The notes: generated by a model not told the origin, from the sequence alone. A stretch of 64,000 nucleotides of DNA from an uncultured Thermoleophilia bacterium (GCA_963832655.1 CAWHUW010000005.1:257156-321155), one strand, 5' to 3'. Positions 9,196-31,901 are shown, counted from the stretch's first letter. Numbers and translations are program-made.

Positions 9196-9546
9196 ATGAA
9201 CCGACGACGGCAGGTCGTCAGAGAGCATCAGGCGTCGCGCGAGGACCCGATCGCGATGCGCGCCGGCGACCCGGTGACGGTCGGCCGGCGCGACACGACG
9301 TGGCCGGAGTACGTGTGGTGCAGCGGCCGAGACGGGCACGAGGGCTGGGTGCCGGAGGCGTTCCTCGAGGCGCGGACGGACGGCAACTGGCACGCGAGCC
9401 GCGACTACGATGCGCGAGAGCTGGACGTCGCCCCCGGCGACGTCGTCCTCGCGCGCGAGGAGGCCGGCGGCTGGTTTTGGTGCGAGACCGCCGGCGGCCG
9501 CCGCGGATGGGTCCCTGCCGAGTGCCTGACGGCATCCGACGAGTGA
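9196..9546 (+). CDS. Small protein with two bacterial SH3-like repeats.
   Basis: Two similar ~45-aa halves (GDPVTVGRRD...EGWVPEAFLE and GDVVLAREEAGGWFWCETAGGRRGWVPAECL). The stop is followed after 3 nt by the next gene. Confidence 0.45.
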   Translation: MNRRRQVVREHQASREDPIAMRAGDPVTVGRRDTTWPEYVWCSGRDGHEGWVPEAFLEARTDGNWHASRDYDARELDVAPGDVVLAREEAGGWFWCETAGGRRGWVPAECLTASDE

Positions 9547-9570
9547 CGGATGAGATGTGAAGGGGGAGCT

Positions 9571-10110
9571 GTGACGGACGACCTGACGAAGTGGTGCGAG
9601 CGAGCGGTCGAGCTGGGCGCTGACAAGGCGACGGTCATCGGCACCGACCAGGTGGTCGCCGCCGAGTGGGTGCGCCTCAAGTGCCTCTACGGCTGCGACG
9701 AGCCCGGCGTGTACAAGACGTGCCCGCCGAACGGGGCGCCGAGCGTCGAGCAGACCAAGCGCGTGCTGGGCGAGTTCAAGCGCGCCGTGCTGCTCGGCGT
9801 CGGACCGATCTTCGGAGAAGACAAGTCCGACGCCGAGTCGCGGCGCCTCAACGACGCCGCCCTCGCGCTCGAGGGCGAGCTCTTCCTCGCCGGCTTCCAC
9901 AAGGCGTGGACGATGGGCGCCGGACCCTGCGACATCTGCAGCGCCTGCGCGCAGGGCAAGGACTGCCCGACCCCGGAGAAGGCGCGACCCTCGATGGAGG
10001 GCTGCGGCGTCGACGTCTTCACCACGGTGCGCAACGCCGACTGGCAGATCGACGTCGTGCAGACGCCCGAGTCGGAGTACCGCTTCTTCGCTCTCGTGCT
10101 CGTCGACTGA
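9571..10110 (+). CDS. DUF2284-type predicted metal-binding protein (Cys-rich).
   Basis: Conserved Cys pattern LKCLYGCDEPGVYKTCPP ... CDICSACAQGKDCP. GAAGGGGGAG SD before GTG 9571. Confidence 0.55.
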   Translation: MTDDLTKWCERAVELGADKATVIGTDQVVAAEWVRLKCLYGCDEPGVYKTCPPNGAPSVEQTKRVLGEFKRAVLLGVGPIFGEDKSDAESRRLNDAALALEGELFLAGFHKAWTMGAGPCDICSACAQGKDCPTPEKARPSMEGCGVDVFTTVRNADWQIDVVQTPESEYRFFALVLVD

Positions 10111-10191
10111 CGCCGGCGCTCAGGGCGTCGGCGTCAGTCCGCTCGCGCCGCCGTGACCGTCAGCAGGAGGCCCCGGCAGCCGGACGCGCGA

Positions 10192-10668
10192 TCACGCCGC
10201 CTTGGCGACCGGCCGGGCGACCGACGCCTCGGCCAGCAGCTTCAGATTCTCCAGGCTGTCCTCGAAGTCGCGGCGCACGCGCTTCTCGACGACGAGGCGG
10301 TCGAACAGCTTGCCGAACACCCCGCCGCCCAACGTGTACTCGAAGTCCGTGGTCGCCTCCACGTCTCCCTCACGGGGCTCGTGATGACACGCCAGCGAGC
10401 CCGAGATACCGCCCGCGTACTCCCACCGCCAGTCAGTGCTTCCGTCGGGGTTGTGCCTCTCCTCGACCGTACGCATGATGAGGCGCTGCCGCCTGCCCAT
10501 CATCTCCAGCGTGAACTCCGCCTTGGTCCCCGGGCCGCCGTCGCCGAACGCGCGGTGTGGCCCGCTCATGCCGACCCAGTACTCGGTGGCGCGATGGGGA
10601 TCGCGCACGATGTCGTTCAAGGTATCGGGTGACGCCTTGATGTACGTGGTCTGCTTCAGATGTGCCAT
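10192..10668 (-). CDS. SRPBCC superfamily protein (polyketide cyclase / AHSA1-like fold).
   Basis: ORF 10192..10731(-); start at MAHLKQ with a GGAGGGAGGG SD. ~158 aa of beta/alpha SRPBCC-like sequence. Confidence 0.5.
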   Translation of the reverse strand: MAHLKQTTYIKASPDTLNDIVRDPHRATEYWVGMSGPHRAFGDGGPGTKAEFTLEMMGRRQRLIMRTVEERHNPDGSTDWRWEYAGGISGSLACHHEPREGDVEATTDFEYTLGGGVFGKLFDRLVVEKRVRRDFEDSLENLKLLAEASVARPVAKAA

Positions 10669-28099: not shown

Positions 28100-29252
28100 A
28101 TGAAGCTCAGCGACGCGTGGCCCGAGGCGGCGAGAGACGGGAGCGACCCCGAGGGCGAGCCCAGGACCAACGTGAGCGACCTCGTCGACGGCGAGACCGT
28201 GACGAGCTCCTACGTGTGCTCGGAGCGCGACGTCAGGACGACGAAGAACGGCGGGACGATGGTCAACCTCACCCTGCTCGACGCCACCGGGCAGGTCAAG
28301 GGGGTCCACTTCGACCCGTCGGAAGAGGTCGTCGCGACGCTCGCGCCGGGTAGCGTCGTCAAGGTGCGGGGCACGGTACAGGGTCGACCCCAAGTGGGGG
28401 CCGCAGCTCGTCGTCGACAGACTGCGCACGCTGAGCGAGGGCGAGTACGACCCCGCCGCCCTGGTCCCCGTGTCGCCGATCGGGGTCGACGAGCTCCGCG
28501 CCCGGCTCGCGGCGCTGATCGGGAGTGTCACCGAGCCACACGTGAGGGCACTGCTCGAGCGCGCCCTGGACCCGGACCGCGAGCCGGGCGCGACCTACGC
28601 CGTCGCCCCCGCGGCGGTGCGCATGCATCACGCGTATCGGCACGGGCTGCTCGAGCACTCGGTGATCGTCGCCGAGGTAGCCGCCGGCGTGGCCGAACGG
28701 CTGCCGACCGTCGATCGCGACGTCGTCGTCGCCGGCGCCCTGTTGCACGACATCGGCAAGGTCGTGAGCTACTCGAGCGACCCCTTCGCGCCCGGCTTCA
28801 CCGACGTCGGGCGCCTGCACGGCGAGATCGTGCTCGGACACGACATGGTGCGCGGCCTCATCGGCGAGGTCGACGGCTTCCCGGAGGAGCTCTCCTCGCG
28901 TCTGCGCCACGTCATCGTCGCCCACCACGGCGAGAAGGAGAAGGGAAGCCCCGTCATTCCGATGACGCGCGAAGCGATCGTCGTCCACTACTGCGACGAC
29001 ATGACGGCGCGGGTGGCGGCGGTCGACGACGCGGAGCGCGCGACCGCCGCCGGCGAGCGCTGGTCGGCCTTCAGCCGCATGCTCGACACCTTCGTCTACC
29101 TCGGCGACGGGGAGGCGGGAAGCGAAGGCGGACGCGTTGCGGAGGGCGTCGCCGGCCGGACGGCGGAGGAGGATCCGGCGCCCGCGAGGCCGCGCGACGA
29201 CGCGGAGCCCGTCGCGGCAGACGACGAGCCGCCGTCGCTGTTCACGGAGTAG
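28100..29252 (+). CDS. OB-fold + HD-domain 3'-5' exoribonuclease (YhaM-like). There is a frameshift near ~28385.
   Basis: N-terminal OB-fold segment (TKNGGTMVNLTLLDATGQVKGVHF), HD motifs HHAYRHGLLEHS ... ALLHDIGK ... HVIVAHHG, AAGGAGG RBS. Confidence 0.6.
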
Positions 29253-29307: not shown

Positions 29308-29759
29308 TCAGCCCCAGACCTCCCGCGCCGCGGCGAGCACCTCGGCCGCGTGGCCCTTGGGGGTCACCTTCGGGTAGATCCTGCGCAGCGTCCCGTCGGC
29401 GTCGATCAGCCAGGTCGTGCGCTTGGCGACCCCGACCATGGGCCGCGCCACGCCGAACGCGCCGGCGACGGCGTGCTCGTCGGGTTCGCTGATGAGCGGC
29501 ATGCGCAGCTCGTACTTCTGCGCCCACTTCTGATTGGCGGCGGGCTTGTCGACGCTGGCGCCGACCACCTGTACGCCGAGCTTCTCGAACTCACCCAGCA
29601 GGCCGTTGAACTCAACGGCTTCCGTCGTTCAGCCCCCGGTGTTGGCCTTGGGGTAGAAGAACAGGACGGTCCGCCTGCCGGGGGCGCCGATGTCGAACAC
29701 GGTCCCGTCATACGACGTGCCGGTCACCGCCGGCGCCTTGTCACCCTCCTTGAGCATCG
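29308..29759 (-). CDS. PrxQ/Bcp-type peroxiredoxin with an in-frame TGA (29629-29631) at the peroxidatic-Cys position. It is a candidate selenocysteine-containing peroxiredoxin.
   Basis: The two ORFs 29629..29985 and 29308..29568 are in the SAME frame, separated only by TGA. Translation reads VLFFYPKANTGG-[UGA]-TTEAVEFNGLLGEFEKLGVQVVGASVD, i.e. the PrxQ P-x-x-x-T-x-x-C-T-x-E motif with UGA replacing Cys. Confidence 0.6.
29602..29619 (-). promoter_or_regulatory. SECIS-like hairpin 10 nt downstream of the in-frame UGA of the peroxiredoxin.
   Basis: mRNA 5'-GCCGUUG AGUU CAACGGC-3' forms a perfect 7-bp GC-rich stem with a 4-nt apical loop containing G-U. The spacing from UGA to the apical loop is ~17 nt, within the bacterial SECIS range. 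Confidence 0.4.
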
Positions 29760-29819
29760 CCTCCCCCTTCGTCGTCGGGACTGCCGGCAGACTCCACCGC
29801 CGGCCGGCCCGCTCGCCTC

Positions 29820-30272
29820 TCAGTAGCCGCCCCAGAGCTGCTCCGCCTCGGCCAGCACGTCCCTCGCGTGGCCGTACGGCGGCACCTCGCTGAAGATCCG
29901 TTTGACGAGCCCCGTCCGGTCGATCATGAAGGTCGCCGCCCGCGGCCGTCCCTTCTTGGTGCCGACCAGGCCGAAGGCGAAACAAGCCTTGCGATCGGCG
30001 TCGCTCACGAGCGGGTAGTGCAGGTCGTAGCCCGAGGCGAAGGTCGCGACCAGCGCCGCACGGTCCACGCCGATGCCGATCACCTGCACGCCGAGCTGCT
30101 TGAAGCCGAAGAGCTGGTCGTTGAAGTCGGAGGCCATGCTGATGCTGCGCGCGCTCATGGCCTCCTCGAAGAAGAAGAGGACGAGGTGCTGCCCCGGGGC
30201 GGCGAGGTCGTAGTACTGGCCGTCGCTCGTCGCCAGCGTCACCGCCGGGGCCTCTTCGTCGATGCCGATCAC
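29820..30272 (-). CDS. Peroxiredoxin-fold paralog lacking any active-site cysteine.
   Basis: A clear paralog of the adjacent PrxQ (EAPAVTLATSDGQYYDLAAPGQHLVLFFF vs KAPAVTGTSYDGTVFDIGAPGRRTVLFFY, and matching C-termini ...RIFSEVPPYGHARDVLAEAEQLWG). The catalytic segment reads EEAMSARSISMASDF with no Cys in any frame. Confidence 0.6.
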   Translation of the reverse strand: MIGIDEEAPAVTLATSDGQYYDLAAPGQHLVLFFFEEAMSARSISMASDFNDQLFGFKQLGVQVIGIGVDRAALVATFASGYDLHYPLVSDADRKACFAFGLVGTKKGRPRAATFMIDRTGLVKRIFSEVPPYGHARDVLAEAEQLWGGY

Positions 30273-31454: not shown

Positions 31455-31901
31455 TCACTCGGCGCTTGCGCGCTCCTCGTCGGCCTCGGGCTCCGCGACG
31501 GCCTCTTCGACCTCGACGGCCTCCTCGACCTCTTCGGCCACGATCTCCTCGGCGACCTCTTCGGCCACGATCTCCTCGGCGACCTCTTCGGCCACGATCT
31601 CCTCGGCGACCTCTTCGGCCACGATCTCCTCGGCGACCTCTTCGGCCACGATCTCCTCGGCGACCTCTTCGGCCGGGGCCTCCGCAGCCGGAGCGGCTGC
31701 GGCCGCCACCGGCCGCACGTTGGCGGCCTGGTCGCCCTTGCGGCCCTGGGTGACCTCGAACTCGACCACCTGGTCGGTCTCGAGCGACGTCACGCCCTCG
31801 GCGAGGCCGGTGACGTGCACGAAGATGTCGCTGTCGTTGTCCTGCGCGATGAACCCGTAGGCCTTCTCGGTCGAGAACCATTTGACTTTGCCTTGAGGCA
31901 C
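31455..31901 (-). CDS. Cold-shock-domain protein (CspA family) with an acidic C-terminal tandem-repeat tail.
   Basis: VPQGKVKWFSTEKAYGFIAQDNDSDIFVHVTGL (cold-shock domain), then (EEVAEEIVA)x5 and an EEAVEVEEAVAEPEADEE tail. Confidence 0.8.
   Translation of the reverse strand: MPQGKVKWFSTEKAYGFIAQDNDSDIFVHVTGLAEGVTSLETDQVVEFEVTQGRKGDQAANVRPVAAAAAPAAEAPAEEVAEEIVAEEVAEEIVAEEVAEEIVAEEVAEEIVAEEVAEEIVAEEVEEAVEVEEAVAEPEADEERASAE
31527..31674. repeat. Five and a half tandem copies of a perfect 27-bp repeat (gacctcttcggccacgatctcctcggc) inside the csp gene.
   Basis: Seen directly. It encodes the 9-aa acidic repeat and causes the shadow ORF 30779..31753 with PRRPLRPRS repeats. Confidence 0.9.

Follow-up and report, generated by a model that had tools for sequence, protein, structure and literature searches.

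A putative selenocysteine-containing BCP/PrxQ-type peroxiredoxin with a conserved SECIS-like hairpin in uncultured Thermoleophilia

In a 64,000-nucleotide stretch of DNA from an uncultured Thermoleophilia bacterium (the whole stretch analysed, hereafter the window), a peroxiredoxin-like reading frame is interrupted by a UGA codon, raising the question whether this codon is a stop, an error or a selenocysteine (Sec) codon. The initial annotation had described two minus-strand ORF pieces (29629..29985 and 29308..29568) lying in a common frame with one TGA between them, and translation confirmed this arrangement: a single in-frame TGA occurs in the context ...VLFFYPKANTGG*TTEAVEFNGLL..., and the read-through product reads ...RTVLFFYPKANTGG-U-TTEAVEFNGLLGEFEKLGVQVVGASVD...KRTTWLID.... 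The predicted features are collected in Table 1. As detailed below, nt 29308–29757 of the minus strand very probably represent a genuine selenoprotein gene, coding for a Sec-containing peroxiredoxin of the BCP/PrxQ type. This reading is based on the position of the UGA, its conservation throughout the clade, selection on the adjacent hairpin at the RNA level, the orthology of Sec and Cys forms and the persistence of TGA as a stop codon.

Table 1. Coordinates of the predicted features of the locus, counted from the first letter of the window
Feature	Position	Strand	Details or basis
Complete CDS, 149 codons, predicted BCP/PrxQ-type peroxiredoxin	29308..29757	-	ATG 29757-29755; Sec codon 43; terminal TGA 29310-29308
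UGA, predicted to be read as Sec (U43), at the peroxidatic position of P-x3-T-x2-U	29629..29631	-	Orthologs and Cys homologs
Shine-Dalgarno-like purine-rich AGGGGGAGG, 2 nt 5' of the ATG, with putative function	29760..29768	-	Read from the sequence
Putative SECIS core hairpin	29602..29619	-	5' arm GCCGUUG 29619-29613; loop AGUU 29612-29609; 3' arm CAACGGC 29608-29602
Possible extended SECIS: lower helix UGAAC 29631-29627 / GUUCG 29590-29586, including the UGA	29586..29631	-	48-nt MFE fold
Upstream tandem AhpC/TSA-fold paralog, 150 aa, degenerate active site FFFEEAMSARSIS	29820..30272	-	Pfam AhpC-TSA 1.1e-19

The interrupted gene and its protein family

When Cys was put at the UGA, the translated protein matched the Pfam family AhpC-TSA with an E-value of 1.8e-29 (102.6 bits, against a gathering cutoff of 26), and Redoxin was matched as well. 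The nearest PDB chains were of the BCP/PrxQ type (5enu, 6e-24; Xanthomonas BCP, 1e-19), as were all the top eleven PDB rows (6e-24 to 9e-15), with the first Prx1-type chain at 3e-14 and AhpE at 1e-10. The segments FYPKxNTxGCTTE and R-(S/T)-T-(F/W)-LID align residue by residue with the PDB BCP/PrxQ chains, catalytic Arg included. The active-site motif reads P36-K-A-N-T40-G-G-U43, conforming to PxxxTxxU, and is accompanied by R113; U43 is aligned with the peroxidatic Cys of the PDB BCPs and of three Cys-containing homologs (P0001, P0002 and P0118). A PrxQ active-site signature with the stop exactly at the peroxidatic Cys had been claimed from the window alone, and the claim is borne out by the Pfam match, by the alignment with PDB and Cys-PrxQ homologs, in which both the motif and the Arg agree, and by the TGC found at this codon in close orthologs.

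Scores against the curated NCBIfam models were lower. The protein reached 75.5 bits with Bcp (NF006960, cutoff 140) and 75.6 bits with PrxQ (NF053650, cutoff 260), in both cases below the equivalog cutoff, and is best described from these profiles as a BCP-type relative rather than an equivalog of the NF006960 or NF053650 enzymes. The model for Prx-SUH (NF045827), a CxxU protein, gave 37.8 bits against a cutoff of 298, the corresponding motif being here TGGU, with no Cys.

The resolving Cys of atypical 2-Cys BCPs, located either at Cp+5 or in helix alpha3, is missing, position Cp+5 being occupied by Val48. Among 56 distinct intact orthologs, no Cys at all was found in 22 (including the window protein), C144 was present in 24 and C90 in nine, with no conserved second Cys. 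In its predicted sequence the protein is thus of the 1-Cys/1-Sec type and not an atypical 2-Cys enzyme. BCPs of the 1-Cys type exist.

Conservation of the UGA and of the downstream hairpin

A scan of species-representative genomes retrieved 66 related loci, mostly from MAGs labelled Thermoleophilia and some labelled Actinomycetes or Actinomycetota. The gene neighbourhood is collinear with the window, at 90% nucleotide identity over 20 kb in the closest locus (L060) and 71–74% in other loci, which places the window in the Thermoleophilia lineage. TGA was found at codon 43 in all the 65 loci covering the site, in full-length collinear genes with protein identity down to 43–44% (L065 and L066), and accordingly in every one of the 56 distinct intact orthologs, whereas outgroup 2-Cys peroxiredoxins carry Cys codons at the U43 site. 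Divergence at codon positions 1/2/3 was 0.16/0.17/0.41 upstream of the TGA and 0.21/0.18/0.38 downstream; since the first two positions are far less variable than the third on both sides, both halves appear to be translated, and in one frame. The terminal stop of the 56 orthologs is TGA in 30, TAG in 25 and TAA in one. TGA is therefore not reassigned and serves as an ordinary stop in these genes, so that the internal TGA needs a local signal.

These data bear on the possibility that the TGA arose by faulty sequencing or assembly, or that a TGC/TGT codon has recently mutated with loss of gene function, the gene being then an ordinary Cys-PrxQ or a pseudogene. Indeed, the window and its relatives derive from long-read MAGs affected by indel errors, as seen in the neighbouring HD gene (28100-29252) and in the frameshifted peroxiredoxin copies of L045 and L059-L063, and Cys versions of the protein do exist. 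However, 65 independent species-level assemblies, produced in many different studies and on many platforms, have TGA at this codon, the flanking sequence is under purifying selection on either side, and the adjacent hairpin is constrained at the RNA level (see below). We thus assign a virtually negligible probability to this explanation, in agreement with the initial annotation, which did not favour a TGC-to-TGA error.

When homologs were sought among 5.8 billion proteins, 117 of the best 120 were C-terminal fragments of 81–113 aa and the remaining three were full-length proteins with Cys. The fragments, publicly named 'peroxiredoxin Q/BCP' or 'redoxin domain-containing protein', start at internal GTG, ATG or TTG codons that vary between orthologs, a pattern which we read as the signature of genes cut by gene callers at the conserved TGA. 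More than 100 database clusters of such fragments could also be taken to mean that two products are made with no recoding, namely a 42-residue N-terminal peptide and an independently initiated C-terminal fragment. This is extremely unlikely: no internal start is conserved, as the called starts differ between orthologs; the fragment is devoid of the whole active-site loop and of beta1–beta3 of the thioredoxin fold; conservation at the protein level, in one frame with the rest, extends to the N-terminal part; and the Cys orthologs are single proteins of 149–152 aa.

The hairpin that had been proposed 3' of the UGA was found at its place, with a 7-bp stem and a folding energy of -10.2 kcal/mol. 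The 5' arm begins after a spacer of 9 nt and the apical loop lies 16 nt from the UGA. According to the bSECIS model, bacterial SECIS elements have a loop of 3–9 nt, a stem of 4–16 bp, a G at loop position 1 or 2 (usually then G or U), a UGA-loop spacing of 16–37 nt and an MFE of -7.5 kcal/mol or below (PMC13188914). Checked one by one against these values, the present element falls within all of them, with a 4-nt loop (AGUU) having G at position 2 and then U. The bacterial SECIS geometry put forward in the initial annotation therefore agrees with the published criteria, and is further sustained by the RNA-level constraint described hereafter.

Folded alone, the 18-nt hairpin is more stable than expected (z = -4.5), but it is not by itself beyond chance. 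Perfect 7-bp hairpins with loops of 3–9 nt occur 171 times in the window, whose GC content is 70%, a SECIS-like hairpin follows 34 of its 1272 TGA trinucleotides, and the 81-nt region around the UGA and the hairpin shows no better fold than shuffled sequences (z = -0.6). Thermodynamics thus does not single the hairpin out; since chance hairpins of this kind are common and the 81-nt fold is unremarkable, the case rests on conservation and on the position of the UGA at the catalytic codon.

Conservation of the hairpin is indeed marked. Codons 46–52, which contain it, are frozen across the 56 distinct intact orthologs: Val48 is GTT in 56 of 56, while the other Val columns use GTT in 0–3 sequences; Glu46 is GAA in 53, while Glu49 and Glu56 are all GAG; and Ala47 is GCC in 55. 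Pairwise divergence at third positions was 0.044 in the hairpin codons, compared with 0.405 upstream and 0.38 downstream, approximately nine-fold lower. The RNAalifold consensus of 53 distinct sequences corresponded exactly to the 7-bp hairpin. Covariation consisted of one compensatory change (C-G to G-C, in L065); two further pairs show G-U wobbles, and two cells of the alignment are broken. That covariation is thin is due to the near invariance of the hairpin and to its overlap with the conserved residues EAVEFNG. The synonymous-site pattern argues that the hairpin is under selection at the RNA level.

The MFE fold of a 48-nt segment additionally contains the lower helix UGAAC/GUUCG, which would enclose the UGA in a stem, in the manner of E. 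coli fdhF, although with a z-score of only -1.6. Its pairs are kept in 98% of the cells with no covariation, all the bases being also fixed by the coding sequence, so that this extension is at most a weakly supported possibility.

Comparison with the Cys orthologs provided a further view on the hairpin. The closest two full-length homologs, P0001 and P0002, are Cys forms with TGC at the site and are syntenic with the Sec forms, the common neighbourhood comprising MetW, CSD, metallo-beta-lactamase fold, Cupin (absent in the P0002 contigs), Prx and HD genes. In P0001 (L081-L083) the hairpin is gone, GAA GCC GTT ... GGC being replaced by GAG GCG AAG ... GCC, with a shift to GC-rich synonymous codons, and the segment folds worse than shuffled sequences. 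On the contrary, in P0002, recovered from two independent samples (L084 2514-2963 and L085 1094-1543), TGC is found together with an intact, unchanged hairpin; the most plausible reading is that Sec was recently converted to Cys here and that the SECIS persists as a fossil. The locus L057 contains two tandem Sec-Prx genes (9430-9843 and 10001-10441), both of which carry a TGA (at 9532 and 10127, respectively) and an identical GAAGCCGTTGAGTTCAACGGC hairpin. Taken together, P0001, P0002 and L057 show that the hairpin is kept up only where the codon is UGA.

Decoding of the UGA and the selenocysteine machinery

Sec insertion calls for a dedicated machinery, and its genes were looked for in the window and beyond. 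ARAGORN and Rfam gave no hits in the window, and ARAGORN run on 60 related loci found one tRNA-Asp only. A tblastn search with E. coli SelA/B/D, serving only as probes, and with Thermoleophilia SelA/B/D recovered no selA, selB or selD in the window and 80 loci. Overall, the 64-kb window and approximately 1.3 Mb of sequence from the 66 related loci contained none of selA, selB, selD and tRNA-Sec, consistent, as regards the window, with what had been noted from its sequence. A scan for in-frame TGA codons with coding signal on both sides returned no other candidate selenoprotein gene in the window or the 66 loci.

The Sec trait of the class was then addressed in metagenome contigs, which were scanned for a GC-rich SelA PLP-site motif and picked by composition closest to the Thermoleophilia loci. 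The contig closest in composition, L164, carries a sel operon with selA, selB (with winged-helix and beta-barrel domains), selD and tRNA-Sec. The named SelA homologs of L164 and of a second contig were Solirubrobacterales, Solirubrobacteraceae, Capillimicrobium, Baekduia alba and Conexibacter sp., all belonging to Thermoleophilia. In two megabase-scale, long-read, Solirubrobacterales-like contigs (L207, 2331-11347, and L208, 2340-11353), a selD-selB-selA cluster adjoins an NrfD/4Fe-4S/molybdopterin formate dehydrogenase whose catalytic subunit, FdhA, has been annotated as two separate genes on either side of the Sec UGA, in the classical ...ARI-U-HSSTVPGLG... context. This UGA is followed by a hairpin, GGUCCCC-GGUCU-GGGGACC, with 7 bp and a loop beginning 18 nt after the UGA. 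From these contigs, found separately from the Prx-bearing genomes, we conclude that class Thermoleophilia possesses the Sec trait and also a SECIS of the 'xGU-loop' type. The sel operons found are of Solirubrobacterales, while the MAGs carrying the peroxiredoxin are labelled only 'Thermoleophilia' and may belong to a different order. In a further Thermoleophilia-like contig of 2.3 Mb (L210, 2968-4858), selA occurs alone and adjoins genes for the RuBisCO large and small subunits and for a CbbX-like AAA protein.

Since no sel gene was found in the window or the related loci, and orthologs tolerate Cys at codon 43, decoding of the UGA without selenium was considered, either by near-cognate read-through or as Trp, Cys or Gly, with the hairpin stimulating read-through in genomes that possibly have no Sec machinery. 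We regard this as very unlikely. The UGA lies exactly at the redox-active Cys position and the geometry of the hairpin, with its xGU loop, fits the bSECIS model; the same loop type occurs in the Sec-FdhA of other Thermoleophilia; a sel operon exists in the class; Sec-peroxiredoxins of the TxxU type are well documented; and these very genes use TGA as a normal terminator. A more radical version, in which the carrier lineage has none of the canonical selA/selB/selC/selD genes and the UGA with its frozen hairpin is decoded non-canonically, by stimulated read-through or by an unrecognised factor, is raised because no sel gene was found in any sequence tied to the lineage; it is highly unlikely. 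More likely than non-canonical decoding is a milder version, in which this 1-Sec PrxQ has become fixed throughout a soil lineage that is abundant and largely aerobic, and counts among the main reasons why the Sec machinery is kept there.

With the UGA read as Sec, the hairpin downstream of UGA43 would act as a bacterial SECIS, recruiting the SelB-GTP-Sec-tRNA(Sec) complex and leading to insertion of Sec with no termination, while the gene's own end is an ordinary TGA with no hairpin. The selenolate of U43 would be the peroxidatic residue in P36-x3-T40-x2-U43, acting with R113, and would reduce the peroxide with formation of a selenenic acid. With no conserved second Cys in the orthologs and none at all in the window protein, an external thiol reductant would be required; the selenenic acid would be recycled by a thioredoxin-like protein or by a low-molecular-weight thiol, making the protein a '1-Sec' enzyme. 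We infer, then, that SelB binds the hairpin, that selenium is incorporated, that such a reductant operates and that selABCD are present in the genome of the window.

Relation to known selenoproteins and to neighbouring genes

Sec-containing peroxiredoxins (PF00578, TxxU) are a long-known and common bacterial family, with 12 members in a 2006 survey and 253 in the GOS data; in 2016 they amounted to 91 proteins in 78 organisms, ranking seventh among selenoprotein families (PMC1794560, PMC2398784, PMC5029168, PMC13188914). The protein described here has in common with the Prx selenoproteins of the Zhang/Gladyshev surveys the AhpC-TSA domain, Sec in PxxxTxxU, abundant Cys homologs and an in-CDS SECIS just downstream of the UGA. 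On these family-level features it can be placed as a new, unannotated member of Prx. It differs in that its clade is formed by uncultured Thermoleophilia, in its BCP/PrxQ type with no second Cys, in falling outside the curated NCBIfam models and in being truncated in public annotation. Literature searches retrieved no description of a Thermoleophilia, Conexibacter or BCP-type selenoprotein.

A comparison with PrxU of Eubacterium acidaminophilum, suggested in the initial annotation, holds as an analogy, both being thioredoxin-fold peroxidases with Sec in place of the peroxidatic Cys, but not as a family assignment: the PrxU model (NF040737) gave 37.2 bits against a cutoff of 270 and its profile has approximately 233 positions, compared with the 149 residues of the present protein, and the host of PrxU belongs to Clostridia whereas the present one belongs to Actinomycetota. 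PrxU, which was reportedly described by Sohling et al. in 2001, is taken here to be Prx1/AhpC-like. A review regards it as the only Sec-Prx with protein-level evidence.

Cys-type BCP/PrxQ enzymes, including E. coli Bcp (NF006960) and those of Xanthomonas campestris (3gkk/5iiz) and Burkholderia (5enu), are much closer, with the best matches (6e-24 to 1e-19), the FYPKxxTxGCTTE segment and the Arg in common, and differ in having Cys where Sec is predicted here, Val48 at Cp+5 and no resolving Cys being peculiar to the present protein. With respect to the SECIS of E. coli fdhF/fdnG and to the bSECIS model, the common features are an in-CDS hairpin after the UGA, G and then U in a small loop and, possibly, a UGA embedded in a lower helix. 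Unlike these, the present element has its spacing at the model minimum and a 4-nt AGUU loop, with no bulged U evident, and its sequence is unrelated to those of the fdhF element and of the SECIS found in FdhA from other Thermoleophilia.

If read as proposed, the gene would add to the known selenoproteins a large clade, carried by uncultured Thermoleophilia/Actinomycetota in no fewer than 65 species-level genomes and represented by more than 100 metagenome clusters, many of soil and peat origin. Among the carriers are the MAGs with the 2.1-Mb contig CAVXXF010000004.1 and with CAVPRQ010000009.1 (MFD00032.bin.2.201), CAWHHT01, CAWAPD01 and three MAGs from Stordalen Mire (L050, L053 and L064). Public pipelines currently render these proteins as 'redoxin' fragments of 81–113 aa, and their correction would benefit gene calling as well as censuses of selenoproteomes and estimates of how far these communities depend on selenium. 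The near-invariant 18-nt SECIS, together with Sec-to-Cys revertants with and without the hairpin, may offer a natural series in which to follow how a SECIS decays once Sec is lost. The finding leaves what is known of Sec decoding and of peroxiredoxin chemistry unchanged.

The paralog lying immediately upstream (Table 1) is outside the recoding signal. In its active site Pro is changed to Glu, Thr to Ser and Sec/Cys to Ser, its single Cys being elsewhere, and it probably arose by tandem duplication of the Sec-Prx gene followed by decay. A comparable paralog was present in only six of the 66 related loci (L002, L026, L042, L055, L057 and L060), with another in the L036 translation, and a role of this Ser variant as an obligatory partner or resolving subunit was ruled out by its occurrence in only about seven of the 66 loci. 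The upstream copy of L057, a second intact Sec gene in the place of this paralog, shares only 36% identity with the paralog of the window and resembles the Cys form P0118.

A few observations concern single contigs and genes. A Sec-Prx sharing 79% identity with that of the window, and having the same hairpin, occurs on contig L030 (JBLMXT010000053.1), which was assigned to a 'Deltaproteobacteria bacterium' bin but is probably a mis-binned Thermoleophilia contig. In the convergent downstream gene of the window (28100-29252, plus strand), the OB-fold domain (PF01336, 28100 to approximately 28420) and the HD domain (PF01966, 28470-29252) lie in different frames, while the orthologs are single HD proteins of 329–332 aa; either a long-read indel error or a pseudogene would account for this. 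On the other side of the locus, nt 31455-31901 of the minus strand encode a cold-shock-domain protein in whose acidic C-terminal tail the unit AEEVAEEIV is repeated in tandem about five times, its orthologs in L081 and L084 being 71–77 aa in length.
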